Assembly (NCBI GenBank): GCA_041667185.1 | Contig: JBAYFM010000010.1 | Location: 1-58,336 of the forward strand | Source of the DNA: Patescibacteria group bacterium | GTDB lineage: Bacteria; Patescibacteriota; Patescibacteriia; SG8-24 | Length of the DNA: 58,336 nucleotides | Direction of reading: 5' to 3' | Shown here: piece after piece, positions 6,288 through 58,336 of the stretch | Numbering within the stretch: position 1 is the stretch's first letter | How the letters are laid out: the number at the start of each line of letters is the position of its first letter | Translations under genes and position numbers: made by a program | The notes under the pieces: generated by a model | The model's database searches: none | Seen by the model: the letters and a program-made list of their open reading frames with translations, nothing else | Told to the model about the DNA's origin: nothing

Positions 6288-6430
6288 GGAGGGTGTGGGG
6301 CTCCTCCTCGCCCGCCACTCGCTACCAGGGGCCCCTGCCCCTGGTGCTCGCGGCTCCTTCGGAGCCCGGGTCGTCCGCAACTTGCCATACTAGGCAAGTT
6401 GCGTCCGTACCCTTCGAGCCCCACACTTCC
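6284..6430 (-). other. 147-nt structured element bounded by inverted copies of the tRNA-Ser T-arm/acceptor 3' half, with an encoded CCA end
   Basis: Minus-strand 5' arm GGAAGTGTGGGGCTC is RC of 6416-6430. The 3' arm GAGCCCCACACCCTCC-G-CCA is RC of 6284-6303 and is identical to the last 20 nt of tRNA-Ser (6472-6491). Three perfect internal hairpins lie at 6377-6402, 6352-6366 and 6324-6345. Confidence 0.55.
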
Positions 6431-10201: not shown

Positions 10202-10208
10202 AGTGTGA

Positions 10209-10904
10209 TCAGACCGTGGACGCGTTATCGCTCACGCGCAATTTATCGGTGTCGCTCATCTTCTCGGAATCGAAAGTTTCCGGATTATAGACCCGATAAT
10301 AGAGCTCGATGAGGCTCTGGGTGTCGAGCTGTTGGGATTTCAGGCCCATGCTGTTCAGCGCGCTCTGCATATGCTCGACGCGGAGCATCAGCTGCTGTTT
10401 GCGCTCCTGGAAACGCTTCTCGGCGAGCCGCACGGACAGCGCGGGCGAGATCGCGTCCTGCAGCTGCGCGAAAAATCCCTTGCGCTTGTCGGACAGCGGA
10501 TTGTACGGCACGACCACGAAGAACTGCTTCTGCATGATCTGTCCGAGATCGATGAGTTCCTTGATGAACGCGCGGTATTCGGAGATCTGCATCCGTAGCA
10601 GGTCGTTCTGCTGTTCCCGTTCGGCCGCCTGCAGGCGTTCCAGATATTTGTCGATGTTCAGGCGCCGCGACTGGATGACGATCTGCAGCGGATACTCGAG
10701 CGAGTTCAGGAAAGCGACGTACTGGGCGATGACCGCGTTCTGCTCGTCCTCGGATTTGAGGGCGAAATTGATGCTGGCGACCATGATGACGGCCCGAAGC
10801 GTGCCATCGCGCATGATGACGATGTCCTCCTTGATCTCGGCAATGTCGATGTAACGCTGGGTGGCCGGACCCGGTTTCGGACCGGCCAATTTCTGGGACT
10901 GCAT
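10209..10904 (-). CDS. stand-alone protein resembling the N-terminal domain of Gram-positive VirB4 (TcpF/Orf16-type)
   Basis: 231 aa. DIAEIKEDIVIMRDGTLRAVIMVASINFALKSEDEQNAVIAQYVAFLNSLEYPLQIVIQSRRLNIDKYL matches the I..I..d.i....G....v..v..iNF.L.S..Eq..i...f..fL..l..p.Qi pattern. No P-loop is present. Confidence 0.7.
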   Translation of the reverse strand: MQSQKLAGPKPGPATQRYIDIAEIKEDIVIMRDGTLRAVIMVASINFALKSEDEQNAVIAQYVAFLNSLEYPLQIVIQSRRLNIDKYLERLQAAEREQQNDLLRMQISEYRAFIKELIDLGQIMQKQFFVVVPYNPLSDKRKGFFAQLQDAISPALSVRLAEKRFQERKQQLMLRVEHMQSALNSMGLKSQQLDTQSLIELYYRVYNPETFDSEKMSDTDKLRVSDNASTV

Positions 10905-10910
10905 AGGACT

Positions 10911-11348
10911 CTAGTCTTCCGGATTATAGACGCCGCCCGTGTTCACGATGAGCGACAGTTCGTTCAGCTTGGTCGTGCCCAGCGCCTCCTTGTAGATCCT
11001 CTTTTTGGGCGGCAGGGGCGGCGGAACCCTGACGATGAAATTCAACTCGGCATCGGTCAGGTTCTTGTCCCAGGCCCGCAGAGCCGGCCGCCGCAGCGTC
11101 TGGACCAGATTGAGCAGAAAAAAATGGAACGGTTGGCCGTTGACCCGGAAAAAAGCCAGGGTGCCGCCGATGAGAAGCAGGGCGATGGCCACGACCAGGA
11201 ACAGGCTGAAATCGAAGAGCTTGTAGGCCAGGAACTGAAAAAACGCCATTGCGAGCAGGATCACGAATTGGCGCGTAGTGACCGGCCCGATGATCTTATC
11301 CTCCACCTCGATGAATTGCGGCACGGTGTACTTCATGACGTCTTCCAT
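10911..11348 (-). CDS. PrgI family (VirB3-like) small membrane protein
   Basis: 145 aa. KYTVPQFIEVEDKIIGPVTTRQFVILLAMAFF followed by two TM segments is the typical PrgI layout. It lies immediately upstream of the VirB4-type genes. Confidence 0.75.
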   Translation of the reverse strand: MEDVMKYTVPQFIEVEDKIIGPVTTRQFVILLAMAFFQFLAYKLFDFSLFLVVAIALLLIGGTLAFFRVNGQPFHFFLLNLVQTLRRPALRAWDKNLTDAELNFIVRVPPPLPPKKRIYKEALGTTKLNELSLIVNTGGVYNPED

Positions 11349-16811: not shown

Positions 16812-19800
16812 GGCGCCTTCTCAGAAGGCTTCGTGGTAGTGGTCGTGAGGTTGCCGAAACAATCATTGCCCTCCACGTCGTTATTCCGGTCCGTGTTGAG
16901 GCAGAAATTGTCGCCGTCGGTCTTGACGCACGTGCCGTTGCAGACGCCCCAATTGTCCGTGAACTGGACGCGCGGGCGGAAGACGCAGTAATTACCTTCC
17001 TTGCAGGGATACGTCTCTTCGTCGACCAGGTTGCTGCAGGCCGGCAACGAGTCGCGGTACGGCGTGTTGCAGACGTAGGTCTTGGCCTCCTCGAAATACC
17101 GCGGATCGCACGTGTCGTCGGTCAGGCCCCAGTATTTGCCCCAGTCGGCGTAATCCGAGCTGCAGATCTTCTTGAGATTCGCGGCGGCGACGGGGCCGTT
17201 GTAGAAGGCGCCGCGGTGATTCTTATAGTAAGCGTCGCCGGAGGGGACGAGTTTGCCGTCGCCGAAGTCGAAGACCTTGCGGCGCAGCGGCATCTGATCC
17301 TTGTCGGCGTAGGCGTAATACCTGATCTTGACCGTCAGCCGTCCGCCGCCGTCGGCGCCCTGGATGATGTCGGTGCCGGCCGAGGTGCTATTGCCGCGGT
17401 CCGAGATCATGGTCAGACCCTCGGTCGCGAGTTCCTGGCAGACTCCTTCTTCGCCGTCGATGCATTTGCCGATGCTCGTGTCGACGCCGACGACCCGCGG
17501 CCGCTTGGAGAACGACGTGAGTCGCGATCGGTCATCCCAACCGCCTGCCGGCTGGTAGGTCAGATCGTTGGAGTTGCCGCCCCAGTGATAGATCTGTTCA
17601 GCGGTCGCGAAGAGTTCCGAGAGCCGGCGTGTCGCGTTCGGCAAAGCGCTGGCGCCATTATTGTTCCAGCTGGCCGGAAGACCGGTTCCGCCGCAGGCGC
17701 CGACGCAAGCATACGGCACGCCGCTATAGGACCGACCGCCGTCGTTCTTATAAGCACTGGCGGCGCTGTTCCAATAGATGTACGTGAACGGGCTGCCGCC
17801 TTCCGTATTGAACACCGGCAGGATCTTCTCGAACGTATCCGGAGCGATGCCGGCGGGGTCGGAACCATAGGTCAGCGCATCGGCATTCTGGGTCGCCGGA
17901 ATCGTGGCGATGCGTCCGAACGGTTCCAGCGATTCGCTGGCGCCGGTGCGGGTGGAGGCGTGGGTGAACGAGTAGCCAGTGGCGACGAACTGGCCGGCTT
18001 TCCACATCCGATCGGTCCAGACGACGCCCGGAGCCACCGGATTATGGACGTAGGCGACGTCGGTGCAACGATCGCGCAGATGGACGGTGATGGTGCCGTT
18101 GTAGACCGGGTTACAGGACCAATTGTCGTTATGGCACATCGTGGTCTTGAAACCATCCAACTTCTTATCAGCGGTCCAGATCGGCATGATGCCCACACAA
18201 TCGCGATCGTTCTGGCCGTTGTTGTCGGCGGACCAACGATCGCACCAATCCGCAACCTCATCATTAGTGCCTTCGGTCAGCAGGTTTACGCAGATCGACC
18301 TGGCCTGGCCGCCGGAAGCCGGAATACCTTCATCGGATTGAGGCGGCCAATCGTTAGCCGGCTGATGGCCCGGCGCGCGTGTTTCCGTGCCTTCCCAAAT
18401 TCCGGCTTTCGGATGCCGCTTGCCGCCGGTGTCATCATCTTCCCAATCAATCGCTTTGCCGTTGAAATCAGGACCGGTCATATACAAGGTGACCAGACCA
18501 CTGGAGCTGGGTGCGCCCTGGCTGCACAAAGATTCATTGCAGGCCGTGCCGCCACAGAGGCTGGCATTCGGACACTTGCCGTCATTGGTCAGTGTTCCCT
18601 GGTCAGGATCCGAACCGCAATCGCGGGTGCAATCCGTCGGCTGCCGGAATTTAGTGCCGTCAGCGCAAACCCAGCGGGTACAACCGGCGTTACCGGAACA
18701 AGTCTGAGACCTCGTCCCATAATTGGAACAGGTCGACGCGGTCGGATTGCAGCCAGGGTTGAAATCCACCTGGATGCCGGCGATCTGATCGCGGCTGATC
18801 TGCGGCGCCCAATCACGGATCAATCGGCCGCCTTCGCCGTTGGTCAGGTAAAACAGATGTTTGTAATTGCCGCTGGCGGAGCCGGTGTATTGCCGGCTAG
18901 CGGAATATCCCTGACCAGCGACCTGCGTGCCCTCGGCGACAGCGCAATAGGACAGAGCGCTGGTCTGCTGGTAGCCGGCCTCCCGGAACTGGTTGAAACG
19001 ATCCGGCATGCCGGACAGCTTGTCCACCGGCAACCACATGATGCAGGCGCGCCGGGCCTCGTCGTTGTTGATGATCAGCGACTCGTCGTAATCCAGGCAG
19101 AAGCCCGGCCAACCGAGCAGCGTCGAGACCGACTTGAGCTTCTGGCACTGGCCCTGGCCGTCGACGCAGGCCGCCTTCAGACCGGGATCGATCGCGCCGG
19201 AACCCAGATCGCAGGGTTTGCCGTCCTCGGAGCCGCCGACGCACAACGTCTTCGCGAAGCCGCGCTCATAAGTCGCGTCCTTGACGCCGAGGTAGCGCTT
19301 CTCGCCGTAATTCGTGCCGTAGGTCAGTTTCTGATAGGCGCACTCGCAGTCATTGCCGTTGCCGTGGCAGATATTAGCGCCGGCGAAATCAGGCGACCGT
19401 TCGGCTTCCACGCCGGAAGCGGTCCCGGTGGCGGCGTCATAACCCGCCTGGCCCTTAAGTATGATGGTCGAAGAGTAGGGCGAATCGACCTCCGGATAAG
19501 CCCGGCAGAGTGGCATCGCGCCGACGTCGTTGCGCAGCAGCGGACCGCCGGTGTAGTCGTAGTAGCAGAGGTGCTGGTAGCAGCGGCCGCCTTTGTTCGA
19601 AGCGCCGAAATCCGGATCGATCTTCTGATCGACGCAATCGCTCGAGATGCCCGATCCGCTGTCGTCGTTGGGCCGGCAGGTCAGGGCGCAGGAACCGGAG
19701 ACGCCGCCGCAATCCTTGTCGTTGGTGCAGAGCTCGCCTTTCTTGGCGCCGCTCTTGCACAGCGCCAGATTGACGCCGTAGCGCTGCTGGGTCATTTCGG

Positions 19801-22800
19801 TCTTGGAGCACCAGGCTTTCGAGCCGCAATCGGCGTCCGTGGCGCAGGCGACGCCGTACTTGTTGATGTCGCCCATGCAGCTGCCGCTCTTGTTACCGGT
19901 CACTGTCGGCATGGTGGCCGGCAGCAGGTACTGAGCCGGGTAAGCATTGGGCACGCTGTAACCGGAGAACTCCAGACCCTTCCAGGAAACATCGCGCTGG
20001 GCGTACTGCTGGTTCGTCAGCCGCGATTTCTCCGGCTCGACGTAGCTGCGGCACTCGCTCGCGACGCCGACGACGGTCGACTCCTCGCACAAGCCGAAAC
20101 CAGTGCAGGATTCGCGCCACTCGCCCTTGGTCTCATCCCAGGTGATCTCCGACTCGCGGCAATTGAGCCAGCGGGCGCACTCGCGGTCCGGACGGACCTT
20201 GAGCACGATGTTGGCGTCATTGCGGGTGAAGTCGACCCCGGTCAGGCTCCGGCGGCAGGTCTTGCCGGACGGACAGGTCGCCGGATCGCCGTAGGTCATG
20301 CATTTCTCGCCCAGCTGGGAGCTGCAATCCCGATCGGAGCGGCAGCCGAAGCCGTAGCTCTCGGTCCCGATGCAGCGTCCGACGCCGCAATCGGCATCCT
20401 GGTTGCAGGCCTGGCCCAGAACCGTGATGTCCTCGCAGGTGCCGTTGACGTAGCTGAAGCAGCGGCTGCCGCACAGCTCGTCGGAACGGTTCGATAGGTT
20501 GCAGTTGACCGGGCTGGCGCTCATATCGCCGGCTTTGACGTACGAAGCGGCGGCGGAATAGAGGTTCTGCGGATTACTGGTCTGCTTGAGCGCGACGCAG
20601 CCGGTCTTGAGATCGACGTTGCCGCCGCAGGTGGACTGATCGATCTTGCTGTTGAATATATAATAGTAAGGTTCGCCGGCGGCGTGATTCGGCGAGGTCG
20701 CCACCGTGTCGACGAATTCCTCGCAACGGTCGTACTCGGCCGCGCACAGACCGACCCAGCCGTCAAAGCCGCAGACGCTGTTGCCGCGCATGACCCGGCA
20801 GGCCTGTTCGACCTTGCAGGTGGTCTTGGTATTGCCGACCGTGCAGGAATTCTGTCCTTCGTTCGGGCAGGCACAGCCTTCGGGTTTGGTGCAAGCCGAC
20901 GCCAGGGTGCAATCCGGAGAATCCGGACTGGTGCTCAGATAGCACGGGCAGCCGGCGTCCTGGGTGCACGGCGTCTTCAGGTCGCAGCGCTGGTCCTTAT
21001 TCTTGGCGATGGCATAGAACTCGCCGTTCACGAGCCGGTCGCCGTAACACGGCAGCAGGGCGCCGCTCTCGGTCTTCCGGAACCAGCCCGAGACCCGGCG
21101 ATCCTTCACGAAGACGTTCTCCCGGTATTCGCAGGCGCGGTTGCCCGGATCCTTGAAGTAGTAGGAACCGTCGCGCGTCGAATACTGGGCGCAGCCGACC
21201 TCTTTCTCCAGACACAGGGTCTTGGAATAGTCGGCCGGATTATCCTTGACGGCCGCGGCTTTCCAGCTCCCGATGATCGGCTCGGAGACGGAGTACTGGC
21301 AGCGCGATTCGCCGATCTTGATCTTGCAATAACCCTTGGTCTTGGGATCTTCGCAGCCGGTCTCGGCGCTCACCGGCGTCTCTTTGTTCGCGACCCGGTT
21401 GACACACACGCCGTCAAAGGCCTGGTTCGGGACGCCGACGGTGCGACAGCCGATGTTCGCGGCTTCGCATTTGTCCTGAGGAGTCACGACGAGATGGGTC
21501 AACGAATCAGCCGGCACGACCACGATATCCGGATTGGCGGCGCGGGACGCCAGCGACGCCCGGGTCTCCAGGTTGAATTTCGTGATGCGGCACTCGGTCT
21601 CATTGAACGCGACGCGACAGGCGTCGAACAGCATCAGCGGCGCTTCGGCAGAGGCGGCCGCGTGCGGCAATCTGTAATTACAGATGCAGTTCGTACCGCC
21701 GTCGGCCGGAGCCTCGGGGCTGCCGCAGCGGGCCGGCAGGCTGCAGACAGCGTTGAACGATTCTTCGTAAGGATTCTCGACCGTGTTCTTGGTGTCGGAG
21801 TAAGCGGAGCAGCCGACCACCTTGTCGCGGCACAGCTTGCTGAACGAACGCAGGTAGCTGACCTTGCCGGCGGTGTTGCGGTATTCGCGGCAGCCGAGCA
21901 TTTCCCGCGGCGACGCCGCGCCCGCGAGCGTCTGGTCGCAGGAAGCGGGGATCTTCCAGGAATCGCGGACCACGCTGATCGTGTCGCGGACCTCGTTCAA
22001 AATGAGATTGTCGAGATAGACCTCGCCGATCGTGACGACCGGAGCGGCCGCGGACCCCGCAATGCTGAACTTCAGACAACGGCCGTTCGGACAATCCGGA
22101 CCGGCAACCACGGTCTCCTGGAAAATGACCGGACCGAGGGCGTAACGGCGCCACTCGCTGGTCAGGATGATCTTCGGCGCGGACTTGGTCGCGTTGTTGT
22201 CGTCGCTGAACACCTGGGTGCCGGCGCCAGTCTCGGAGCCGAAGCTGATGTTGAGGATACCGCCGCCGCGAGCCCAGAACGACAGGCTATAGGATTGGCC
22301 GCCGGTCACGAGCGTTCCCAATTCCCGCACGATCTCGCGCCTGTCGGTCGCCGTGCCGGAGAGTTTGAGCGAGTGTCCGCCGACGACCAGCGCTTCCGAC
22401 GATTGCGCCGGGATCGCGGTGCCGGCTTTCCAGACGGCCGCGTCGATCGCCTGTTCGAACGCGTCGGTGAAAGCGGCGCGGATGTTCGAAGCGGCATTGC
22501 CTTTGTAGGCCCGGCAGCCCTTGGAAGCCGCCGCGCAAGCCAGGCTGTCGCCGGCCGAAGCGGCGTAGATGCATTCCTGTTTCGCTTCGTTCCAGGAGCC
22601 GTTCGAGTCGCGGCAATCAGACTCGATCGAACCAGTGATGCGATAGCGCCGGCAATCCGCCGCAGCCACGATGACGCGCGACATCAGCCGGTAATGGCGG
22701 TTGCCGAACTCATCGTAAAATTCGCGGCAATCGTAATCATGGCCGGCATCAATGGAATCACGGGTGCAGAAACCGTCGGGCAGTTCCGCGCCGGCGATCG

Positions 22801-25800
22801 CCACGGACTCGTCCAGACACTCGAACCGGTCATCGCCGACTGGGGCCGCGGTGTTCAGGTGGACGCAGGGCGAGTAGCCGCAAGTTCCGCCGGCGGTCGG
22901 CGCGCAGACATCACTCGCGGTGGCGGCGGCCGTAACGATCTGGGCTTCGGTCCGCTTCAGGTTCCAGACCTTCAGCTGATAGCCGGCCGTGTCCGAACCT
23001 TCCCAGGAATAGAACACCTGGTTGGTGTCGGCCTCGGGTTTCTGGCAGATGCGCAAACGGGAATAATAGCTGCGCTGCTCGTTCTCCAGATCCGTGAACT
23101 CCGAACAGCCGATCTCGGCCTCGGAACAGGACTGGGCCAGTTTCGGAATGAAGTAGATCGGGAATTTGGAAGCGCGTTCGAATTCGGACGCTTCCTGTTT
23201 GAAGACGTCGTAACCGGAACATTCCGCCGGACAAGCGTCCTGCGGTCCGACGACGCCGGGAATGGCCGGATCGGCGGTCGCAGGAGTATAGCGGTCGCAA
23301 CCGACCTCGTTGTCGCGGCAGACCATCGCGAAGCTCTTGCATTCCGCGCGGTCGCCGTCCTCGCCGGTGCAGCCGAGATAGTTCGGAGCGACTTTGGCGT
23401 AAACCAGTGATTCGACCTCGCCGTAAGTATCGTGGTAAGAGACGCCGCCGCCCTCGTTCAACAGGACGCCATCAACCATGGTCTGGGCGCCGCTGATCTC
23501 CAGGTAAGCGCCGGCGATGGGCCGACTCACCGTGAACGTGCACGACGGGCGGACGTAAGCGGCGTCCGACAGAGCCGGGTCCGTCGCCGCGGTCAGGGTC
23601 ATGAAGAGGCCGCCGGCCGGAGTGAAGTCGCACGGACCGACGTTGGGGGTCACGATGACGTCATCATTCTTCACCCAACCAGCCATGGAGGCCGACTGAT
23701 TATAATCGGACTGGTAGAACTTGAGCCGCAGCGTCGCGCTGGCGGCGCCCGGTCCTGGGACCAAAGCGGCCGGGATCTGCCGCAGGTCGGCGGACAGCGT
23801 ATAGGTCTTGCCGATCTCGAGCGGCAGCCGATCCTGGATCAGACGATTGGTGAGCGAACAGCTGGTCTCGCCTTTGGCGACCGCGCAGCTGTAGCCGCCC
23901 TTGGGGCAGGTGCAGGAAGGATAATTCGCGCAGGCCGTATTCAGCGTGCAGACATCCTCGTAATCGCCTCCGACCCGGGCGGCATTCGAACCAGCGGAGG
24001 CATAGAACTTGTTGTCCGCGCCGCGTTCAGTGATGATCCCGCCAGCGCCGCCGACCGTCACTTTGCCGAAAGGCGACCAGTACTTGGCGTGATCACTGGC
24101 CCCGTCGGCATCCATATCCTCGAGCGTCTCGAAACTGCCGTTCTTGACGAGATTCAAAGACTGGCCGGCCGCGAGCTTCACGAGAGCGGTGCAGCCGTTC
24201 TTGTCCGCCGAACAGCCCTGAGCCTGTTTGTTGAGATAAAGAGCCGGGGTGATCTGCCAATCATCGCCGGCTTCGGGACCGCCGACGATAGTGCTGCAGG
24301 ATCTGGCGCCCGACACGACCAGACAGGAAGAATTCTTGGAACAGTCGCACTCGGCGGTCTGACAGACATTGGGCAGCCGGCACTGCTCGCCGCTCGGCAG
24401 CAGCAGACAGGTCTTCTCGCCCTGACCGACCTTGCACGAACGAGGTATCGTGCAGGAACACCCGGCGCTATTCGAACACACGGCGCCGAGAGTGCAGCTG
24501 CCGGCGTTCAACCTGGTCGAGTACGCCCGACAGCCTTCATTCGAGGAATTGCACACGCCGTAATCAAGAGTGTTGACTAGGAAATTTTCGGTCTTGCCGG
24601 ACGTGCTCTTGAACGTGCGGCAGGAATTATAATATTCAGGGCAGGAATCGGCGTTGAACCGCCAGACGCGCCGGTCCTGAGTGCAGTAACCGTAACCGCC
24701 GACGCACTGGCCGAAATCGTCCTCTTTGAGACAGGTGGCCACGTCCGTGCAGGTCTCGGCGCGAGTGGCGATCCCCGCGCTGAGCAGCACCGGTCCGTAA
24801 ACCTTGGCGCGACATTCGGCTGACGGCGCTTTGAGGACCCAGTTGGGATCAATGAGATGGCACCACTTGGTGGCCGGATTGGCCGCGTCGGGTGCGCCGT
24901 TCACGCCGCAGACATTGAAGCCGGCGACGACCTGGCCCAGCGTCACTTTTTCTCCGGTCGCGGCGACCTTGCTCGCGGCGATCTCCCAGCCGATCGGGAT
25001 GATCCGGGCCGCGCGCATCTTCTTGAGATTCGTCTCGCAATAACCATCCTGATAGCAGGAAGCCTTGGCGTTATCCTGGCTGGTCGCCGGGATCAGCCGG
25101 AAATCCTTGTGCAGCAGATCCTGTTTGAGGGCTTCGCCGACGGTCAGCGGGATGGCGTTGCCGGAACGGATCGCGACCGCGAGCGCCTGATCCATCACGC
25201 AATTCTCCGGACCGCGATATGCCTCGGGACACAGACCGAACAAGGTGACTACGTCATACATGCCGGTTCCCTTGATCGGCGTCGCCCGGATCAGCGACGA
25301 GGGAGCCTCGATCTCCCCGATCCGCTCGCTGCTCTGAACGAGACCAGGATTCACCAGTGATTCGCGGTCCAGCAACGCGACCTCCGTGGCCGCCTCTTCG
25401 GCAGCCATGAGCGACAACAGTTCCTGAACGCCCTTGTTCCAGAATCCCTTGATCAGGGTCATGGCGAAAGTCTGGACCATGCCGCCAACGATCGGCTTCC
25501 AGGCCTTGGCAGCCAAAGCTCCCGATGCCGCCATCTGCACCCCCGTATCCGGAATGACGCCGCTCTTGTCCTTGTAGAGGTCGAATTCTTTCTTCGCGAC
25601 CGCCGCCGGACTGAGTACATTGCCGGTCACGGGATCGGTGATGTCCGAAAAACCGCCGCCGCCGGCGTATTTATTGGCGACTTTCAAACTCTGTTCCAGA
25701 TAAGCCTTGGGTTGGACATCCACCTGGATGAACGAACCCATCCGTAAACCGGCTGACAACGGCGATTTGCCCGGCTTGACCGTATCCTTCAACATCTTCA

Positions 25801-26407
25801 TCATTTCGCCTTTGGAGAACTGATTGCCGACCTTGCCCCAGCTCTCGGCGATCTTGGACAGGTCGCACTTGGGCCGCGGCGGCTGGATCTCGTCAAGCAG
25901 ACCGAGCTGGAGATTCAAAGTGAGATTGATGTTCGGCGCACAAAGATTCAGCCCCATTGCCGTCAAACCGGAAGCTTCGCTGAAAGCCCCGATCGCCTCG
26001 CCCGCCGCGCCGGCGACGGCATCTTTCAAGCCTTTGGAAAATTCCTTGGAATCGAAGCAAGGTTTTTGACCGGCGCAATTCAACAGGTTCTGCGCCAGCA
26101 TGCTCGCGACCTGCTGAGCGAACTGATTAGTGGCGCTGACCGCGGCCACCATGACGCCTTCAGTGAGACCTGTGGTGATCTGATCGAAAACGGAGGCGGA
26201 AACAGTGGTGGGTCCGCCGATGACATCAGCCGCCTGCGCCCGGACCGGACGCGGAAACGCCAACATGAACGGCAACGCCGCCGCGAAAGCGAAACCAAAC
26301 ATCAAGATGGCGGAGGCGGCCCTGGATTGACGTGAGTTCATGTTGATCCGGATTAATTTAATTTGCGACGCTGGCGGCTGCTGGCTGAGGCGACGTCTCC
26401 GGATCAT
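16769..26407 (-). CDS. giant (3212-aa) secreted Cys-rich protein
   Basis: Uninterrupted 9.6-kb ORF. N-terminus has RRRR plus the hydrophobic segment AASAILMFGFAFAAALPFMLAFP. Cys modules recur (e.g. CSNSAGCSCTIPRSCKVGQGEKTC, CANYPSCTCPKGGYSCAVAKGETSC, CTQDAGCPC..., CTKPEGCACPNEGQNSCTVGNTKTTC). At least 9 GC.(A/x)(Y/L)-type motifs are present (GCRAYS, GCSAYS, GCAQYS, GCDRYT...). A C-terminal FDFGDG segment is PKD-like. The ATG at 26407 overlaps the upstream TGA (ATGA); an alternative ATG is at 26341. Confidence 0.85.
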   Translation of the reverse strand: MIRRRRLSQQPPASQIKLIRINMNSRQSRAASAILMFGFAFAAALPFMLAFPRPVRAQAADVIGGPTTVSASVFDQITTGLTEGVMVAAVSATNQFAQQVASMLAQNLLNCAGQKPCFDSKEFSKGLKDAVAGAAGEAIGAFSEASGLTAMGLNLCAPNINLTLNLQLGLLDEIQPPRPKCDLSKIAESWGKVGNQFSKGEMMKMLKDTVKPGKSPLSAGLRMGSFIQVDVQPKAYLEQSLKVANKYAGGGGFSDITDPVTGNVLSPAAVAKKEFDLYKDKSGVIPDTGVQMAASGALAAKAWKPIVGGMVQTFAMTLIKGFWNKGVQELLSLMAAEEAATEVALLDRESLVNPGLVQSSERIGEIEAPSSLIRATPIKGTGMYDVVTLFGLCPEAYRGPENCVMDQALAVAIRSGNAIPLTVGEALKQDLLHKDFRLIPATSQDNAKASCYQDGYCETNLKKMRAARIIPIGWEIAASKVAATGEKVTLGQVVAGFNVCGVNGAPDAANPATKWCHLIDPNWVLKAPSAECRAKVYGPVLLSAGIATRAETCTDVATCLKEDDFGQCVGGYGYCTQDRRVWRFNADSCPEYYNSCRTFKSTSGKTENFLVNTLDYGVCNSSNEGCRAYSTRLNAGSCTLGAVCSNSAGCSCTIPRSCKVGQGEKTCLLLPSGEQCRLPNVCQTAECDCSKNSSCLVVSGARSCSTIVGGPEAGDDWQITPALYLNKQAQGCSADKNGCTALVKLAAGQSLNLVKNGSFETLEDMDADGASDHAKYWSPFGKVTVGGAGGIITERGADNKFYASAGSNAARVGGDYEDVCTLNTACANYPSCTCPKGGYSCAVAKGETSCSLTNRLIQDRLPLEIGKTYTLSADLRQIPAALVPGPGAASATLRLKFYQSDYNQSASMAGWVKNDDVIVTPNVGPCDFTPAGGLFMTLTAATDPALSDAAYVRPSCTFTVSRPIAGAYLEISGAQTMVDGVLLNEGGGVSYHDTYGEVESLVYAKVAPNYLGCTGEDGDRAECKSFAMVCRDNEVGCDRYTPATADPAIPGVVGPQDACPAECSGYDVFKQEASEFERASKFPIYFIPKLAQSCSEAEIGCSEFTDLENEQRSYYSRLRICQKPEADTNQVFYSWEGSDTAGYQLKVWNLKRTEAQIVTAAATASDVCAPTAGGTCGYSPCVHLNTAAPVGDDRFECLDESVAIAGAELPDGFCTRDSIDAGHDYDCREFYDEFGNRHYRLMSRVIVAAADCRRYRITGSIESDCRDSNGSWNEAKQECIYAASAGDSLACAAASKGCRAYKGNAASNIRAAFTDAFEQAIDAAVWKAGTAIPAQSSEALVVGGHSLKLSGTATDRREIVRELGTLVTGGQSYSLSFWARGGGILNISFGSETGAGTQVFSDDNNATKSAPKIILTSEWRRYALGPVIFQETVVAGPDCPNGRCLKFSIAGSAAAPVVTIGEVYLDNLILNEVRDTISVVRDSWKIPASCDQTLAGAASPREMLGCREYRNTAGKVSYLRSFSKLCRDKVVGCSAYSDTKNTVENPYEESFNAVCSLPARCGSPEAPADGGTNCICNYRLPHAAASAEAPLMLFDACRVAFNETECRITKFNLETRASLASRAANPDIVVVPADSLTHLVVTPQDKCEAANIGCRTVGVPNQAFDGVCVNRVANKETPVSAETGCEDPKTKGYCKIKIGESRCQYSVSEPIIGSWKAAAVKDNPADYSKTLCLEKEVGCAQYSTRDGSYYFKDPGNRACEYRENVFVKDRRVSGWFRKTESGALLPCYGDRLVNGEFYAIAKNKDQRCDLKTPCTQDAGCPCYLSTSPDSPDCTLASACTKPEGCACPNEGQNSCTVGNTKTTCKVEQACRVMRGNSVCGFDGWVGLCAAEYDRCEEFVDTVATSPNHAAGEPYYYIFNSKIDQSTCGGNVDLKTGCVALKQTSNPQNLYSAAASYVKAGDMSASPVNCNLSNRSDELCGSRCFSYVNGTCEDITVLGQACNQDADCGVGRCIGTESYGFGCRSDRDCSSQLGEKCMTYGDPATCPSGKTCRRSLTGVDFTRNDANIVLKVRPDRECARWLNCRESEITWDETKGEWRESCTGFGLCEESTVVGVASECRSYVEPEKSRLTNQQYAQRDVSWKGLEFSGYSVPNAYPAQYLLPATMPTVTGNKSGSCMGDINKYGVACATDADCGSKAWCSKTEMTQQRYGVNLALCKSGAKKGELCTNDKDCGGVSGSCALTCRPNDDSGSGISSDCVDQKIDPDFGASNKGGRCYQHLCYYDYTGGPLLRNDVGAMPLCRAYPEVDSPYSSTIILKGQAGYDAATGTASGVEAERSPDFAGANICHGNGNDCECAYQKLTYGTNYGEKRYLGVKDATYERGFAKTLCVGGSEDGKPCDLGSGAIDPGLKAACVDGQGQCQKLKSVSTLLGWPGFCLDYDESLIINNDEARRACIMWLPVDKLSGMPDRFNQFREAGYQQTSALSYCAVAEGTQVAGQGYSASRQYTGSASGNYKHLFYLTNGEGGRLIRDWAPQISRDQIAGIQVDFNPGCNPTASTCSNYGTRSQTCSGNAGCTRWVCADGTKFRQPTDCTRDCGSDPDQGTLTNDGKCPNASLCGGTACNESLCSQGAPSSSGLVTLYMTGPDFNGKAIDWEDDDTGGKRHPKAGIWEGTETRAPGHQPANDWPPQSDEGIPASGGQARSICVNLLTEGTNDEVADWCDRWSADNNGQNDRDCVGIMPIWTADKKLDGFKTTMCHNDNWSCNPVYNGTITVHLRDRCTDVAYVHNPVAPGVVWTDRMWKAGQFVATGYSFTHASTRTGASESLEPFGRIATIPATQNADALTYGSDPAGIAPDTFEKILPVFNTEGGSPFTYIYWNSAASAYKNDGGRSYSGVPYACVGACGGTGLPASWNNNGASALPNATRRLSELFATAEQIYHWGGNSNDLTYQPAGGWDDRSRLTSFSKRPRVVGVDTSIGKCIDGEEGVCQELATEGLTMISDRGNSTSAGTDIIQGADGGGRLTVKIRYYAYADKDQMPLRRKVFDFGDGKLVPSGDAYYKNHRGAFYNGPVAAANLKKICSSDYADWGKYWGLTDDTCDPRYFEEAKTYVCNTPYRDSLPACSNLVDEETYPCKEGNYCVFRPRVQFTDNWGVCNGTCVKTDGDNFCLNTDRNNDVEGNDCFGNLTTTTTKPSEKAPWTWAYGKIKIEVP

Positions 26408-32570: not shown

Positions 32571-32820
32571 ATTGGGAATATAGAGAGTGCGGGAGTCAGG
32601 GAGTGACGGAGTTACGGAGTCATTGTCTCTACCTGATCCAATGAACGGGAGAGTGCGGGAGTGGAGGAGTTGGGGGAGACCCGACAAAAACTCCTGCACT
32701 CCCTCACTCCTGCACTCTCACACCCCAAAACTCCCATACTCCGTCTCTCCCTGACTCCGCCACGTCGTTCGCGAACGACGTGGCTCCGTCTCTCCTGCAC
32801 TCCAGCACTCCAGCACTCTC
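32571..32820. repeat. octamer-phased GGAG/CTCC array, locus 2 (compound, with 24-nt palindrome)
   Basis: gagagtgcgggagtcagggagtgacggagttacggagtc ... gagagtgcgggagtggaggag ... ctcctgcactccctcactcctgcactctc ... CCACGTCGTTCGCGAACGACGTGG (32760-32783) ... ctcctgcactccagcactccagcactctc. Confidence 0.85.
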
Positions 32821-32885
32821 TGATTCAAAGCGGAGGTCCCTCTACTGAGGAACCCCCGCTTTTCTGGCTATTGGTTAACCGCTAC

Positions 32886-37969: not shown

Positions 37970-38518
37970 TCAGGGCTCAAGGCGCGTGGCCAGGAAGCGA
38001 TGGTAAGACGACCAACCGCTCGCAAAACCCTTGGACCGCGCCAGAATGAAGTACAGGTCGTACGTCCGCCGATAGGGCCGATCCCAGAGGCTGAGATTGA
38101 AGACCAGATCCTGGTCGCGATAAGTCGCGCCCAGAGCGGTGATGTCGCATTGCCGCCGGAGACGATGCGGATGCTGGGCCAAAAAGGACAGGAACTCGTG
38201 GGCGTCGGCCGGCCGGTAACCGCGCTGGGCCAAATCGGCCAGAGCCTGGTCGGTTTCCGGGAACCAGAGGGAGCCATCAAGTCCCAGGATTTCGAAGTCG
38301 CGGACGTAAGGCGTGACGTGGCAGACCGGATAGATCTCGGACCACGGCCGTGCGAACGGCTCATGGCTGTAAATCTTGATCCCGTCAAAACCGGCTTGAC
38401 GGACGAGATCGTCGATGGGCACGTTCGGATCGACGTAGACGCGGAAAGATTCCGGGCCCGTCAATTTCCAACGCCGCCGCGCTTCCCAATTCGGGAACAA
38501 CTTCGGGAAAAGATCCAT
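37970..38518 (-). CDS. hypothetical protein, tandem paralog 1
   Basis: 182 aa from MDLFPKLFP..., with AAGGAG 6 nt upstream of the ATG at 38518. It shares YRPADA.EFLSFLAQ.PHR.RRQ.DI..LGA.Y and HRFLATRL.P with paralog 2. Confidence 0.75.
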   Translation of the reverse strand: MDLFPKLFPNWEARRRWKLTGPESFRVYVDPNVPIDDLVRQAGFDGIKIYSHEPFARPWSEIYPVCHVTPYVRDFEILGLDGSLWFPETDQALADLAQRGYRPADAHEFLSFLAQHPHRLRRQCDITALGATYRDQDLVFNLSLWDRPYRRTYDLYFILARSKGFASGWSSYHRFLATRLEP

Positions 38519-38560
38519 GACCGTCTCCTTTGACGCTGCGGCCGCCATGGCCGTGACCGA

Positions 38561-38675: not shown

Positions 38676-39227
38676 TCAAGGATCAAGGCGCGTGGCGAGG
38701 AAACGGTGGTGGCTCAACCAATAACTGCGCAGGCTGCGACTCCTCAGAAGCAGATAGACGAGCCGGTACTCGCGTTCGTTCGGCCGATCAAAGACCTCAA
38801 GGACGTAAACTCGATCTTCTTCCTGGTACACGGCACCCAAGGGGATGATGTCGTGCTGACGCCGCTGCCGATGCGGATACTGGGCCAAAAAGGACAGGAA
38901 CTCGCGAGCGTCAGCCGGCCGATAACCGCGTGCGGCGAGGACGGCCAAGGCTTCGTCTAAGTCGAGTCTTTGATGATCCCCACAGAGCTGCAGGAGTTCG
39001 AAGCGGCGGACGTAAGGCTTGCCGCCTTTGGCCGGATAGATCTCGGGCCACGGACGTTTGAGGCTGTCGAATCCAGTGAGACCGCTCACGCGATCAAATC
39101 CGGCCCAATGGACCAGTTCTTTGAAAGACATCCGCGGGTCGACACAGACGTCGAAATGATCCGGAAGAGGCAGCTTCCAACGCCGCAACGACTCAAGCTC
39201 GGGGAATAGCTTTGGGAAAAGATCCAT
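38676..39227 (-). CDS. hypothetical protein, tandem paralog 2
   Basis: 183 aa from MDLFPKLFP..., with the same AAGGAGACGGTC-ATG start context as paralog 1. Roughly half of the residues are identical by eye alignment. Confidence 0.75.
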   Translation of the reverse strand: MDLFPKLFPELESLRRWKLPLPDHFDVCVDPRMSFKELVHWAGFDRVSGLTGFDSLKRPWPEIYPAKGGKPYVRRFELLQLCGDHQRLDLDEALAVLAARGYRPADAREFLSFLAQYPHRQRRQHDIIPLGAVYQEEDRVYVLEVFDRPNEREYRLVYLLLRSRSLRSYWLSHHRFLATRLDP

Positions 39228-39269
39228 GACCGTCTCCTTTGACGCTGCGGCCACTATGGCCGTGGCTGC

Positions 39270-41942: not shown

Positions 41943-41971
41943 AGAATACATGATTTGAGCCGGTTTGGCAA
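41943..41971 (-). promoter_or_regulatory. nusA promoter
   Basis: Minus strand reads TTGCCA aaccggctcaaatcatg TATTCT (17-nt spacer). Confidence 0.5.
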
Positions 41972-41992: not shown

Positions 41993-42090
41993 GGGGAGAC
42001 GGAGATGCGAAGATACGGAGTGCGGGAGAGACGAAGAGACGGAGTCAGGGAGTTTAAGAGTGCAGGAGTGCTGAAGTGCTGGAGAGACGG
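41993..42090. repeat. octamer-phased GGAG-type array, locus 3
   Basis: ggggagacggagatgcgaagatacggagtgcgggagagacgaagagacggagtcagggagtttaagagtgcaggagtgctgaagtgctggagagacgg. Confidence 0.85.
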
Positions 42091-42092
42091 AC

Positions 42093-42123
42093 AATAAAAA
42101 TGCGGCCCGGGATCCCGGGCCGC
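42093..42123 (-). terminator. intrinsic terminator after methyltransferase 42148..42738
   Basis: Perfect 22-nt palindrome GCGGCCCGGGATCCCGGGCCGC, followed on the minus strand by ATTTTTATT. Confidence 0.85.
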
Positions 42124-42808: not shown

Positions 42809-42820
42809 TCAGTGGGTGGA

Positions 42821-42976
42821 GAGAGTGCAGGAGTGCAGGAGTGCGGGAGAGACGGAGATGCGGAGAGACGGAGTCAGGAAGAGACGGAGTCAGGGAGTGA
42901 TGAAGCACTCCAGCACTCCAGCACTCCAGCACTCCTGCACTCCCGCACTCCCGCACTCCTGCACTCCTGCACTCTC
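42821..42976. repeat. octamer-phased palindromic element, locus 4 (archetype): 156 nt in strict 8-nt register with 29-bp perfect terminal inverted repeats
   Basis: gagagtgc aggagtgc aggagtgc gggagaga cggagatg cggagaga cggagtca ggaagaga cggagtca gggagtga tgaagcac tccagcac tccagcac tccagcac tcctgcac tcccgcac tcccgcac tcctgcac tcctgcac tctc. The first 29 nt are the exact reverse complement of the last 29 nt. Confidence 0.95.
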
Positions 42977-43007
42977 AATAAAAAGAGACGAAGCGATGCT
43001 TCGTCTC
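42977..43007 (-). terminator. intrinsic terminator after gene 43020..43619
   Basis: Minus strand reads GAGACGAAGC atc GCTTCGTCTC TTTTTATT. Confidence 0.85.
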
Positions 43008-43019
43008 GCGGAGATACCG

Positions 43020-44507: not shown

Positions 44508-44533
44508 AGGCTTATGATGAGCGACGAGTTGGC

Positions 44534-44561
44534 ATTCTAACAGGCGACCAAAAAAAAGCAA
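44534..44561 (-). promoter_or_regulatory. promoter of gene 44079..44507
   Basis: Minus strand reads TTGCTT ttttttggtcgcctgt TAGAAT (16-nt spacer). Confidence 0.5.
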
Positions 44562-44570
44562 GTGAGCGGC

Positions 44571-44722
44571 GGAGTTGGGGAGGATGGGAGAGACGGAGAG
44601 ACGGAGTCAGGAAGAGACGGAGTCAGGGAGTGATGAAGCACTCCAGCACTCCAGCACTCCAGCACTCCAGCACTCCGCCACGTCGTTTGCGAACGACGTG
44701 GCTCCAGCACTTCCCTACTCCC
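44571..44722. repeat. octamer-phased array, locus 5, with (GCACTCCA)4 and the 24-nt palindrome
   Basis: It shares the 43-nt block ggagagacggagtcaggaagagacggagtcagggagtgatgaa with locus 4. That is followed by four full GCACTCCA units, then CCACGTCGTTTGCGAACGACGTGG (44678-44701). Confidence 0.9.
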
Positions 44723-44725: not shown

Positions 44726-44752
44726 AAAAAACCGGAAGCGCGGCGCTTCCGG
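44726..44752 (-). terminator. intrinsic terminator after methyltransferase 44771..45325
   Basis: Minus strand reads CCGGAAGCG ccg CGCTTCCGG TTTTTT. Confidence 0.85.
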
Positions 44753-45921: not shown

Positions 45922-45990
45922 GAAGTGTGGGAGAGACGGAGTGCAGGAGTGCTGAAGTGCAGGAGTGCGGGAGAGATGAAAGATTGGAGC
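45922..45990. repeat. octamer-phased GGAG-type array, locus 6
   Basis: gaagtgtgggagagacggagtgcaggagtgctgaagtgcaggagtgcgggagagatgaaagattggagc. Confidence 0.8.
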
Positions 45991-46017
45991 AATAAACCGA
46001 GCTGAGCTCGGTAAATA

Positions 46018-46044: not shown

Positions 46045-46183
46045 ATTCTCACCACTGAACTCGGCTCTGGAGTTTCGGTGGGCCAGCTCAGCTAGCCACA
46101 CCTCGCTCTGGTCGCTCGGTTGTTTCATCAGAGAATGCGAAGCTGAGCTTCGCCATCATCTTTTGGAACCGAGCTGAGCTCGG

Positions 46184-46270
46184 TGGTGCGGACGGAGGGA
46201 TTTGAACCCTCACGAGGTTGCCCCCGCCAGCCCCTCAAGCTGGTGCGTCTGCCAGTTCCGCCACGTCCGC
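46184..46270 (-). tRNA. tRNA-Leu (anticodon GAG), long variable arm, CCA encoded
   Basis: RC reads GCGGACG TG GCGG AACTGGCAGA CGCA CCAGC TTGAGGG GCTGG CGGGGGCAACCTCGTG AGGGT TCAAATC CCTCC GTCCGCA CCA (approximate parsing). Confidence 0.88.
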
Positions 46271-46279
46271 GTAGCTGAT

Positions 46280-46308
46280 AAAATAGCCGACTCCGCCAAA
46301 AAAAGCAA
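46280..46308 (-). promoter_or_regulatory. tRNA-Leu promoter
   Basis: Minus strand reads TTGCTT tttttggcggagtcggc TATTTT (17-nt spacer), ending 9 nt before the mature 5' end. Confidence 0.5.
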
Positions 46309-46340
46309 GCGTCAGGATGCCGAAGCCGCGAAATCACCGA

Positions 46341-46393
46341 CTTCCCACTACTCCCTGACTCCATCTCTCCCCAACTCCGTCTCTCCCACCCCC
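46341..46393. repeat. octamer-phased array, locus 7 (CTCC orientation on the plus strand)
   Basis: cttcccactactccctgactccatctctccccaactccgtctctcccaccccc. It abuts the lipid-kinase stop codon (46395-46397). Confidence 0.8.
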
Positions 46394-47247: not shown

Positions 47248-47346
47248 TTGGGAGAGTGCAGGAGTGCTGGAGTGCGGGAGTACGGGAGAGACGGAGTCAG
47301 GGAGTCAGTATCTTAACTTCGTATCTTCAGCACTCCAGTACTTCAA
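47248..47346. repeat. octamer-phased array, locus 8
   Basis: ttgggagagtgcaggagtgctggagtgcgggagtacgggagagacggagtcagggagtcagtatcttaacttcgtatcttcagcactccagtacttc. Confidence 0.85.
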
Positions 47347-47355
47347 GAGTATAGT

Positions 47356-47381
47356 AAAAAACCACCGGCTGTCGCCGGTGG
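47356..47381 (-). terminator. intrinsic terminator after the bactofilin gene
   Basis: Minus strand reads CCACCGGC gaca GCCGGTGG TTTTTT. Confidence 0.85.
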
Positions 47382-57490: not shown

Positions 57491-57630
57491 TGCGGAGTCG
57501 GAGGAGAGGAAGTCATGGAGTTGCGGGGTGCGGAAGCCGGATCCGCTCCCTGACTCCGTCACTCCCACACTCCCTCACTCCTGCACTCTCAAACTACCCG
57601 ACTCCGTCTCTCCCCAACTCCGTCTCTCCG
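57491..57630. repeat. octamer-phased array, locus 9 (GGAG arm then CTCC arm)
   Basis: tgcggagtcggaggagaggaagtcatggagttgcggggtgcggaagccggatccgctccctgactccgtcactcccacactccctcactcctgcactctcaaactacccgactccgtctctccccaactccgtctctccg. Confidence 0.85.
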
Positions 57631-57653
57631 TTTCTTCCTGGTGCCTAAACTCC

Positions 57654-57679
57654 AAAGAAAAAGAGCGGCTGAGCCGCTC
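57654..57679 (-). terminator. intrinsic terminator after gene 57706..58071
   Basis: Minus strand reads GAGCGGC tca GCCGCTC TTTTTCTTT. Confidence 0.8.
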
Positions 57680-58170: not shown

Positions 58171-58336
58171 CCAGAGTCAGGGAGAGACGGAGTTACGAAG
58201 AGACGGAGTCACGTCGTTCGCGAACGACGTGACGGAGTCAGGGAGTGATGAAGCACTCCAGCACTCCAGCACTCCAGCACTCCAGCACTCCAGCACTCCA
58301 GCACTCCAGCACTCCAGCACTCCAGCACTCCAGCAC
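58171..58336. repeat. octamer-phased array, locus 10, ending in at least 10 tandem GCACTCCA units that run off the window
   Basis: ccagagtcagggagagacggagttacgaagagacggag TCACGTCGTTCGCGAACGACGTGA (58209-58232) cggagtcagggagtgatgaa, then (gcactcca) x10.5 at 58253-58336. Confidence 0.95.

Follow-up and report, generated by a model that had tools for sequence, protein, structure and literature searches.

Genomes of the Candidate Phyla Radiation (CPR) are small and are usually thought to be poor in repeats. The stretch analysed here, hereafter the window, is one entire metagenome contig of 58,336 nt (JBAYFM010000010.1) from a Uhrbacteria-like chromosome of the Patescibacteria (CPR), whose sequence is known from metagenome assembly. 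Its intergenic DNA contains ten arrays built of 8-nt units, lettered A-J along the contig (Table 1). Of the 30 intergenic gaps that measure 40 nt or more, 10 hold such an array, i.e. about one third of these gaps are filled by a single repeat family, and this family itself hosts a second, tiny and apparently mobile palindrome that is common to distant CPR lineages.

Structure of array D

Array D comprises 156 nt and divides into 19.5 octamers in strict 8-nt register, with the GGAGNNNN units first and the complementary units after them. It reads GAGAGTGC AGGAGTGC AGGAGTGC GGGAGAGA CGGAGATG ... TCCAGCAC TCCAGCAC ... TCCTGCAC TCTC. The 5' arm holds ten G[G/A]AGNNNN units, all ten G[G/A]AG cores lying in a single phase, and the 3' arm about nine NNNNCTCC-type units, the eight CT[C/T]C cores of which again share one phase. 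An exact reverse-complement comparison showed that the first 29 nt match the last 29 nt perfectly. Beyond these termini 24 of the 49 inner arm positions are mismatched, and a repeat tool delimits arms of 70 nt with 76% complementarity.

The period is specific. Among self-match periods of 5 to 12 in the 58-kb window, period 8 is the sole enriched one, with 184 windows vs 0 for each other period, and the pattern GGAGN4GGAGN4GGAG was observed 44 times vs 0 expected. A tandem-repeat search (TRF) likewise returned period 8, with up to 8.9 copies and 10.6 at the contig end. The predicted RNA fold of array D alone (156 nt) has an energy of -105.5 kcal/mol (z = -10); for 42811-43015, which includes the adjoining terminator hairpin, the values are -123 kcal/mol and z = -11.6.

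The original prediction, made from the letters of the DNA, had described the 8-nt register and the perfect 29-nt ends of array D and had taken it as the archetype of a family with nine further loci. Register and ends are exactly as it described, the choice of archetype is a fair one, and the nine loci are all real and all intergenic. That they are of the same kind holds in so far as each is an octamer array; those at 41993, 45922 and 46341 are one-armed and do not fold. The nested palindrome of 22-24 nt and the fixed placement of the arrays between terminators and promoters, both described below, had escaped it.

A family of ten arrays

A census of 115 units from the arrays gave the core G-[G/A]-A-G, which is invariant by construction of the count, followed by T (70%) or A at position 5 and mostly by G at position 6. 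The dominant octamers are GGAGTGCN (n=36), GGAGAGAC (n=15, with a further n=4 of GAAGAGAC) and GGAGTCAG (n=12). The commonest units, GGAGTGCN, GGAGAGAC and GGAGTCAG, contain GG runs only.

Every two-armed array of the window has its GGAG-type arm on the 5' side and its CTCC-type arm on the 3' side. Strong hairpins are formed by B, D, E and H (z -6 to -11) and weaker ones by A, I and J; C, F and G have one arm only and no fold. Several arrays end in (T)ATTG(GG)AGAGTGC ... GCACTCT(CC)CAAT. B and I give the impression of two elements placed one within the other or side by side. Decay is seen as the transitions GGAG to GAAG and CTCC to CTTC in arrays H and C, one arm of H having decayed from GGAG to GAAG. 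Neither the RNA folding energies nor the G-U counts of the arrays showed a consistent strand preference, which argues against a sense-strand RNA gene, and RNA-level selection on the transcribed strand was rejected on the same grounds.

Table 1. Arrays and associated features of the window
Feature	Position	Strand	Remarks
Array A	6224-6310	none	nested palindrome at 6263-6286; downstream of tRNA-Ser
Array B	32571-32822	none	compound/nested hairpin, z = -11; nested palindrome at 32760-32783; adjoins groEL terminator-like hairpin, 32830-32859
Array C	41993-42092	none	one-armed; C-rich on sense (-) strand; between terminator 42102-42123 and nusA promoter (-35 TTGCCA, -10 TATTCT)
Gene for class I SAM-methyltransferase-like protein, 196 aa	42148-42738	-	flanked by arrays D and C
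Array D	42821-42976	none	archetype of the family; register, inverted arms and fold analysed
Intrinsic terminator of the upstream 199-aa gene	42985-43007	-	hairpin, then TTTTTATTG; array D begins directly after the tail
Array E	44571-44722	none	hairpin, z = -7; follows terminator 44732-44752
Nested 24-nt palindrome CCACGTCGTTTGCGAACGACGTGG	44678-44701	none	within array E
Array F	45922-45992	none	one-armed; follows terminator 45996-46012, upstream of tRNA-Val
Array G	46341-46393	none	one-armed, G-rich on sense strand; directly past stop codon of DAGK-like gene, upstream of tRNA-Leu promoter
Array H	47248-47350	none	hairpin, z = -6.4; follows terminator 47362-47381
Array I	57491-57645	none	compound; follows terminator 57663-57679, upstream of tyrS
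Array J	58171-58336	none	(AGCACTCC) x at least 10.6, runs off contig end; palindrome at 58209-58232

Placement and authenticity of the arrays

The genes of the window, nearly all of which are on the - strand, include groES/EL, nusA, yidC, a release factor, tRNA synthetases, two 7TM histidine kinases and a bactofilin. The best named relatives of the NusA protein belong to Patescibacteria (Uhrbacteria, Paceibacterota, 'Patescibacteria group'). Phased triples of the unit were absent from the 51.6 kb of coding DNA. Along the - strand the usual layout is a gene, its intrinsic terminator, the array, 10-20 nt, and the -35 box of the next promoter, e.g. the nusA promoter TTGCCA-17-TATTCT. The terminators ahead of the arrays are gene-specific hairpins with the tail TTTTT(A/G/C)TTG, and the arrays start 6-16 nt past the stems at 42102, 42985, 44732, 45996, 47362 and 57663. 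About half of the strong terminators in 32-49 kb are without an array.

It is tempting to read this layout as arrays starting exactly where transcripts end. This reading is weakened by the very short original terminator-to-promoter spacers, which are so short that any insertion abuts both terminator and promoter. The arrays are not intrinsic terminators themselves, as there is no T-run past the 3' arm and the terminators are separate, adjoining hairpins.

Several genes of the window, and of the syntenic relatives L124 and L246-L248 described below, have a common promoter architecture consisting of a (GCTCA)CTTGC(T/C) -35 box, 16-18 nt, and TAGAAT or TATTCT. Promoters of this type were found in the window at 41943-41971, 44508-44560 and 46271-46310, with arrays ending 10-20 nt upstream.

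No conserved open reading frame (ORF) covers the arrays and an 8-nt period breaks every frame, which bears out the earlier view that they are not coding; the sole ORF conflict, at 57491-57568, is due to an over-extended TyrRS start. They were also rightly separated from CRISPR arrays, being contiguous 8-nt units without spacers rather than 24-48 bp repeats with unique spacers. At gathering score Rfam 15 detected only tRNAs in the window, and in E-value mode merely sub-threshold plant and animal miRNA-precursor models, i.e. generic long hairpins.

Comparison with other assemblies contradicted the possibility of an assembly artefact. Over 20.6 kb the identity with an ENA assembly is 100%, and a JGI assembly differs by three substitutions, all of them in genes, and 0 gaps over 17.3 kb with six arrays. 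The internal arrays thus agree in three assemblies, and since independent assemblies reproduce them they are not artefacts. Breaks in assemblies do coincide with arrays: the ENA contig ends at 58232, a Logan contig ends in the centre of hairpin D (42890), and the window itself ends within (AGCACTCC)n, which makes the length of array J a lower bound. In practical terms such arrays break metagenome assemblies, as in J and the centre of D, and create spurious ORFs.

Paralogous blocks and orthologous gaps

Arrays at different loci share long ordered blocks. D and E are 96.7% identical over 90 nt, D and J 94.6% over 92 nt, E and J 100% over 61 nt, and B and J 95.7% over 47 nt. Direct comparison extended the identical block of D and E, first given as 43 nt, to 75 nt (42861-42935 = 44594-44668). 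The blocks keep the same order of different octamers (8-11 in blocks of 61-92 nt) and their flanks are unrelated. Independent growth in place cannot account for ordered mosaic blocks that are common to loci with unrelated flanks, and the array copies are paralogous, that is, related by descent. In D, E and J conservation is highest at the hairpin centre, and the outer ends differ. Furthermore, the copy number of AGCACTCC is 3-4 for D, 5 for E and 10.6 or more for J, and such differing numbers in homologous copies are the signature of unit-wise slippage.

Syntenic relatives were ranked by the identity of their NusA: L124 (89%), L246 (80%), L125, L127 and L247 (78% each) and L248 (77%). A strict array scan of these relatives found no arrays. 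With a looser scan, a 20.6-kb segment of the window gave 52 phased triples in 7 clusters, L246 gave one cluster, and the other relatives none. The original prediction had proposed a comparison of orthologous gaps, and this gave a mixed picture. No arrays are present in the relatives in the gaps bactofilin-DAGK (site H), groEL-DUF4870 (site B) and 199-aa gene-nusA (sites C and D). Site E, the gap between a methyltransferase gene and a 142-aa gene, has retained a short foldback in L246, CTGGAGCC GGAGGGTT ... GTACTTCA GAACTCCC, and a decayed one in L247 that shares the right end CCAACTCCGC with the window; in L248 this site is without an array. A GAAGT/ACTTT octamer foldback also lies directly past another terminator in L247. 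As site E is orthologous in L246 and L247, the array family predates this lineage and has been long-lived at one site with turnover of its units, yet it is strongly expanded in the genome of the window.

A nested palindrome of 22-24 nt

A perfect 22-nt palindrome, CACGTCGTTCGCGAACGACGTG, is nested in four of the arrays (A, B, E and J). Its 24-nt form is (C/T)CACGTCGTT(C/T)GCGA(A/G)CGACGTG(G/A). The nested copies are flanked on both sides by CGGAG/CTCCG, the copy at 44678 having CTCCG on one side and CTCCA on the other, and the flanking context is the same in arrays B and J. The filled paralogue J(-) reads ...CCCTGACTCCGT[CACGTCGTTCGCGAACGACGTG]ACTCCGTCTCTTCG and the empty paralogues D(-) and E(-) read ...CCCTGACTCCGTCTCTTCC. 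Filled and empty sites differ by a 29-nt insertion consisting of the 22-nt core and a 7-nt duplication.

A metagenome scan for the 22-mer retrieved at least 115 contigs of 31-68% G+C from many projects. The matches listed comprise 103 non-redundant copies, in 77 of which the palindrome extends by two further bp. A direct repeat of 4-5 nt lies flush with the 24-nt form in 61 of the 103; in a control with shuffled left and right partners, scored on the 22-nt core and not on the 24-nt form, about 1 of 103 had a flush repeat of 4-6 nt. Transfer RNA genes are a preferred location: 15 of the listed copies start precisely at a tRNA 3' end, at its CCA, and 4 are located at the 5' end of a tRNA. In some cases the palindrome is nested in, or in tandem with, copies of itself. 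All four named carriers are Patescibacteria (two Uhrbacteria, one Buchananbacteria and one Moranbacteria).

A viral origin was rejected on 0 matches in the viral contigs of IMG/VR. Separated half-sites 0.3-4 kb apart, as expected of a parent insertion sequence (IS), were not found in any fetched locus, and a full-text literature search with the palindrome sequence found no paper. Identity with a CGTC-tagged repetitive extragenic palindromic (REP) element was also rejected; the CGTC is base-paired within the palindrome and the REP tag is unpaired.

The small dispersed repeats (SDR) of Nostoc, 21-27 nt long, were reportedly described by Elhai et al. (2008, Genome Res 18:1484). As far as they are portrayed in a text citing the SDR work (PMC5861425), the palindrome resembles them in being a hairpin of about 24 nt that is inserted in short tandem arrays, is sometimes nested in itself and has been recently mobile. 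It differs in its sequence, in being perfect, in its clear flanking direct repeats and hot spot at tRNA 3' ends, and in its named carriers, all Patescibacteria and not Nostocaceae. From these features, the behaviour of the 22-24-nt palindrome appears to be that of a minimal mobile palindrome and can be compared with that of the SDR elements.

The same architecture in other genomes

When one genome per species was scanned for five GGAG cores in phase, at least 120 loci were obtained, with taxa counted from record titles. Neither among these listed loci nor among the contigs listed for the 22-mer was there a further contig of the genome analysed here. Among the matches listed are about 45 from cyanobacteria, 16 from Bacteroidota, 12 from Planctomycetota, 11 from Chloroflexota, about 10 from Acidobacteriota, 7 from Verrucomicrobiota, and others. 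The layout of a GGAG array followed by its complement is present at many of the listed loci, in cyanobacteria, Chloroflexota, Acidobacteriota, Prevotella and other groups. Of the clusters in this listed set, 13 have the complementary (CTCC) array on the 3' side of the GGAG array and 0 have it on the 5' side. At two loci, L055 and L070, octamer-array arms flank about 200 nt of unrelated DNA. No published description of 8-nt GGAG-type arrays in cyanobacteria was found, and a full-text literature search for the octamers returned chance primer matches only.

A second sample consisted of 0.76 Mb of metagenome loci picked for the 22-nt palindrome, the four named carriers of which are all CPR. Short tandem arrays in this DNA have periods of 7, 8 and 9, and not 5, 6, 10 or 11. 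The G-rich and usually purine-rich arm is 5' in about 19-20 of the 22 inverted pairs of period 7-9 listed from these palindrome-selected loci. Among the matches listed from named genomes, inverted pairs that are not of the GGAG type, and hence were not selected by the pattern, had the G-rich arm first in 21 cases vs 2, and the named-genome comparison as a whole gave 36 vs 3. Over unselected inverted pairs from many phyla, this order was seen in about 40 of 43. Unit sequences and periods (7, 8 or 9 nt) vary among genomes and the architecture is constant. The G-rich-arm-first order is thus a near-universal rule across phyla, which had earlier been noted solely for Xanthomonas, and it can be tested against the biology of Rho or of terminators. 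This rule and the 22-nt palindrome with target duplications in many metagenome contigs are the most unexpected by-products of the analysis.

Chi-like sites, restriction-site decoys, G-quadruplexes and Shine-Dalgarno sponges were judged from the unit sequence as possible roles. The occurrence of unrelated units in the same architecture in other genomes led us to set them aside.

Comparison with known repeat families

Sequences of the short tandemly repeated repetitive (STRR) type, for which Mazel 1990 and Vioque 1997 are reportedly the primary papers, and long simple sequence repeats (SSRs) offer the nearest precedents. Filamentous cyanobacteria commonly have hairpin-forming STRRs of 7 bp, whose function is unknown (PMC2670836). 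Rehm et al. 2015 described arrays of GGGAATC in Xanthomonas and of GGGGA(C/T)T in Nostoc, which are over-represented in non-coding DNA between aligned ORFs, at mean distances of 28 nt (upstream ORF) and 160 nt (downstream ORF) (PMC4692102). Xanthomonas has 70-75 convergent array pairs per genome that are capable of forming stem-loops, and 83% keep their gene context between two Xanthomonas species, with length changes (PMC4692102). The arrays are mostly transcribed; the authors favour G-quadruplexes and also cite a proposal by which 7-mers are in excess owing to the polymerase footprint during slippage (PMC4692102). The arrays are counted with what the paper cites as the 'long SSRs' of Mrazek and co-workers (PMC4692102).

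The arrays of the window share with those of Rehm et al. the head-to-tail units of 7-9 nt with a G-rich core, the dispersal in non-coding DNA between co-oriented ORFs, the position nearer to the upstream stop than to the downstream ORF, the convergent stem-loop pairs, and a position kept between relatives while the unit number varies. The strand rule of Xanthomonas is also obeyed, array G being G-rich on the sense strand past a stop codon and C and F being C-rich upstream of nusA and tRNA-Val. They differ from the Rehm arrays in their unit of 8 rather than 7 nt, their GGAG core without G3 tracts, their small-genome CPR host, their long (up to 10 units), mosaic arms of three main octamers, their contact with intrinsic terminators and the nested micro-palindrome. 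As the units contain GG runs only, the G-quadruplex idea does not apply to them. With STRRs they have in common short-unit, hairpin-capable tandem arrays in intergenic DNA, for which a role in transcript stability or termination has been suggested (PMC2670836); STRRs are described as 7-bp units of heterocystous cyanobacteria, unlike the 8-nt units here.

The window arrays therefore have the tandem unit, non-coding dispersal, convergent pairs and unit-number variation of long-unit SSRs and STRRs, and lack the 7-nt unit of strict STRRs and the at least four G3 tracts of a G-quadruplex. The original prediction knew of no described element of this kind. This has to be corrected, since 7-nt intergenic arrays including convergent pairs are known (PMC4692102, PMC2670836): the family is an 8-nt, non-G-quadruplex, CPR form of the known long-unit SSR/STRR kind and not a new category.

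It had also called the layout REP/BIME- or MITE-like (BIME, bacterial interspersed mosaic element; MITE, miniature inverted-repeat transposable element). The description as a dispersed intergenic palindromic family stands; proper membership is not supported, as the arrays have no unpaired GTAG or CGTC tag, no target-site duplication could be found, and there is no transposase in the window. Like REP elements, BIMEs and the REP doublets known as REPINs, the arrays are lineage-specific intergenic palindromes, mostly downstream of genes and between unidirectional or convergent ORFs (PMC3337134, PMC3733652). They also form inverted doublets with long folds and carry a purine-rich tetranucleotide at the 5' side, GTAG there and GGAG here. 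A REP is a single stem-loop of 20-40 bp with an unpaired GTAG or CGTC tag (PMC3733652), whereas an arm of the window arrays is a tandem array without such a tag, and no REP-associated tyrosine transposase (RAYT) is found among the proteins of the 58 kb. Array D does have the terminal inverted repeats of a MITE, in the form of its perfect 29-nt ends. No consistent direct repeat occurs at the array borders, and the relatives are too diverged for exact empty sites. A parent IS with matching ends was not detected in the window or in the fetched loci, which were scanned for half-sites of the palindrome. The paired octanucleotide sites of Geobacter metallireducens, as presented in the relevant part of PMC2700814, are likewise tandem 8-nt units in inverted pairs, multicopy and intergenic. 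They differ in having four GTTGCTYN units with variable spacing and an association with ISGme8/9, and are read in that part as regulator sites (PMC2700814).

Origin and possible function

The window is a tractable case for the nature and origin of short-unit intergenic arrays such as STRRs and long SSRs, since it offers paralogues that differ unit by unit, an orthologous site with turnover, a filled and empty palindrome pair and the arm-order rule. We tentatively favour the explanation that the arrays are a lineage-expanded, non-coding family of foldback SSRs that arose by slippage and intragenomic copying and is tolerated in terminator-promoter gaps, although we give it somewhat less than an even chance. 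The arrays would be the 8-nt analogue of the cyanobacterial STRRs and of the heptamer arrays of Xanthomonas and Nostoc. Either DNA strand, or read-through RNA from either side, is predicted to fold into 4-bp GGAG:CTCC helices every 8 nt. Length changes would come from replication slippage of the 8-nt unit, and spread and homogenisation from template switching, gene conversion or illegitimate recombination between arrays, with no transposase of their own. They may persist because a terminator-promoter gap tolerates 100-250 extra bases in a compact CPR genome. The arrays also serve as landing sites for the 22-24-nt palindromic micro-element, as its nested copies show.

The G-then-C order may be harmless or mildly useful, giving a hairpin in read-through RNA and no exposed C-rich stretch for the loading of Rho. 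We speculate that the order is kept by selection, because a C-rich arm placed first would expose a Rho-loading site and a G-rich arm placed first pairs at once.

Several points weigh against this explanation. The shared end motifs (T)ATTG(GG)AGAGTGC...GCACTCT(CC)CAAT and the nested-looking arrays B and I are more typical of a transposable unit, and the arrival of an array in a new gap with no dedicated enzyme is a step that we infer. The protein scan spans 58 kb, and a transposase acting in trans from elsewhere is possible. Persistence at site E amid unalignable intergenic DNA, together with the universal arm order, could mean a selected function. Adjacency to terminators, in turn, is partly trivial because the original terminator-to-promoter spacers are short.

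An alternative that is possible, but rather unlikely, is that the arrays are non-autonomous foldback transposons of MITE or REPIN type, and that a transposase encoded elsewhere, e.g. an HUH/Y1 enzyme acting on single-stranded DNA hairpins, reads the GGAG octamers and inserts beside terminators. In support of this, array D has perfect 29-nt terminal inverted repeats, the end motif ATTG(GG)AGAGTGC and its complement recur at A, B, D and H, and copies B and I are nested or compound. Ordered blocks of up to 92 nt are common to unlinked loci, sites B, C, D and H are empty in the relatives, insertion is always beside hairpins, and the L055 and L070 arms flank unrelated DNA in other phyla. However, no target-site duplication can be defined, and the centres of D, E and J are conserved and their ends differ, the opposite of what a transposase substrate would show. 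The arm lengths of J and H are very unequal, no transposase is encoded within the 58 kb, and a single family of binding sites explains poorly why units and periods (7, 8 and 9 nt) differ among genomes.

The arrays may instead be selected devices at gene boundaries, with the G-rich run on the sense strand past a gene end and the C-rich run ahead of the following gene; a hairpin, or an R-loop with Rho entry, formed by the two runs would back up termination, insulate neighbouring transcription units or protect mRNA 3' ends. Such roles have been proposed for REP elements and STRRs, and this idea is compatible with an origin by slippage and copying; we regard it as unlikely. It would account for the fixed terminator-promoter placement, the strand rule obeyed by the one-armed C, F and G (PMC4692102), the near-universal arm order across phyla, the very stable hairpins, and the maintenance of site E in three lineages while its unit sequence turned over. 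On the other hand, about half of the strong terminators in 32-49 kb lack an array, as do the same gene boundaries in the closest relatives. Furthermore, the arrays themselves lack a T-run, the transcribed strand shows no consistent advantage in folding, and arms have decayed or been lost in C, F, G and H.

It is doubtful that the octamer foldbacks, the 7-9-nt foldbacks of many phyla and the 22-nt CPR palindrome are all outputs or substrates of one undescribed process directed to hairpins or gene ends. An HUH-type or other single-stranded DNA enzyme, or a process at RNA 3' ends, might be responsible, given the sites past terminator tails and at the CCA ends of tRNAs. Were this true, the G-rich-first order and the 7-9-nt unit size would be signatures of the mechanism, and not of selection or plain slippage.

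We think it very unlikely that the arrays are multi-site platforms for an oligomeric protein that reads one GGAG per 8 nt, be it an RNA-binding ring (TRAP, HutP or CsrA type) or a DNA-binding protein with a nucleoid or regulatory role. The invariant GGAG core with its semi-variable 4-nt spacer, the at least 10 phased cores per arm and the single-stranded cores that one-armed copies would expose agree with such a platform. In most copies, though, the cores are sequestered in a stem, other genomes combine the same architecture with quite different cores and periods, and no candidate protein was identified.

It is highly improbable that each array originated independently where it stands, a short seed having grown by microsatellite-like slippage without any copying from locus to locus. 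Such an origin would suit the perfect single-unit runs such as (AGCACTCC)n and the differing unit repertoires among genomes, but is contradicted by the blocks of 8-11 ordered octamers over 61-92 nt (one of them 75 nt identical) within unrelated flanks and by the nested palindrome, whose flanking context B and J have in common. That the arrays are an assembly artefact or a coding repeat can be dismissed with near certainty despite the contig end inside J, the Logan break at the centre of D and the STPALQHS-type ORFs readable through the arrays, in view of three assemblies that agree across six internal arrays, the imperfect arms and unique flanks, a period that breaks all frames, and the absence of arrays at orthologous positions in relatives and of any conserved ORF over them.

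Neighbouring genes and other elements

Among about 40 window proteins (58 kb) searched against Pfam, none was recognised as a transposase, a reverse transcriptase or a RAYT. The 196-aa methyltransferase-like gene, which lies between arrays D and C, is an insertion separating the 199-aa gene from nusA when compared with every syntenic relative. The best homologues reach no more than 57% identity, and they are spread over CPR, Legionellaceae and Micrarchaeota. This low identity and scattered distribution suggest that the gene was probably acquired horizontally. That the arrays travelled as a cassette with it was rejected, as the closest homologue (57% identity) lies elsewhere without surrounding arrays.

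A 17-nt hairpin, ACCGAGCTGAGCTCGGT, occurs twice (46168-46184 and 45996-46012). One copy lies directly past tRNA-Leu and the second about 155 nt onward, just before array F, and the pair brackets a segment. Just downstream of tRNA-Ser, at 6290-6430 on the - strand, is a structured element, about 140 nt long, in which a 9-bp stem encloses three hairpins. Homologues of it are present in L247 (6176-6332) and L125 (6915-7068), beside tRNA-Leu and ending in a duplicated 3' part of tRNA-Leu. In the alignment of the three sequences 11 predicted pairs keep their pairing through two-sided changes, and the element has no Rfam match.

Giant ORFs (1651 aa with one Big_7 domain; 3212 aa) and a type IV secretion-like cluster, comprising a VirB4/TraG-like ATPase, PrgI and a TraC-like protein, lie at 949-5904, 8300-11348 and 16769-26407. 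Two adjacent genes for 192-aa paralogues (37970-38548 and 38676-39254) are about 72% identical at the nucleotide level over about 490 nt and have no Pfam match. Finally, a 934-aa ORF contains a 48-nt tandem duplication (15269-15361) of 1.9 copies with an 88% match.

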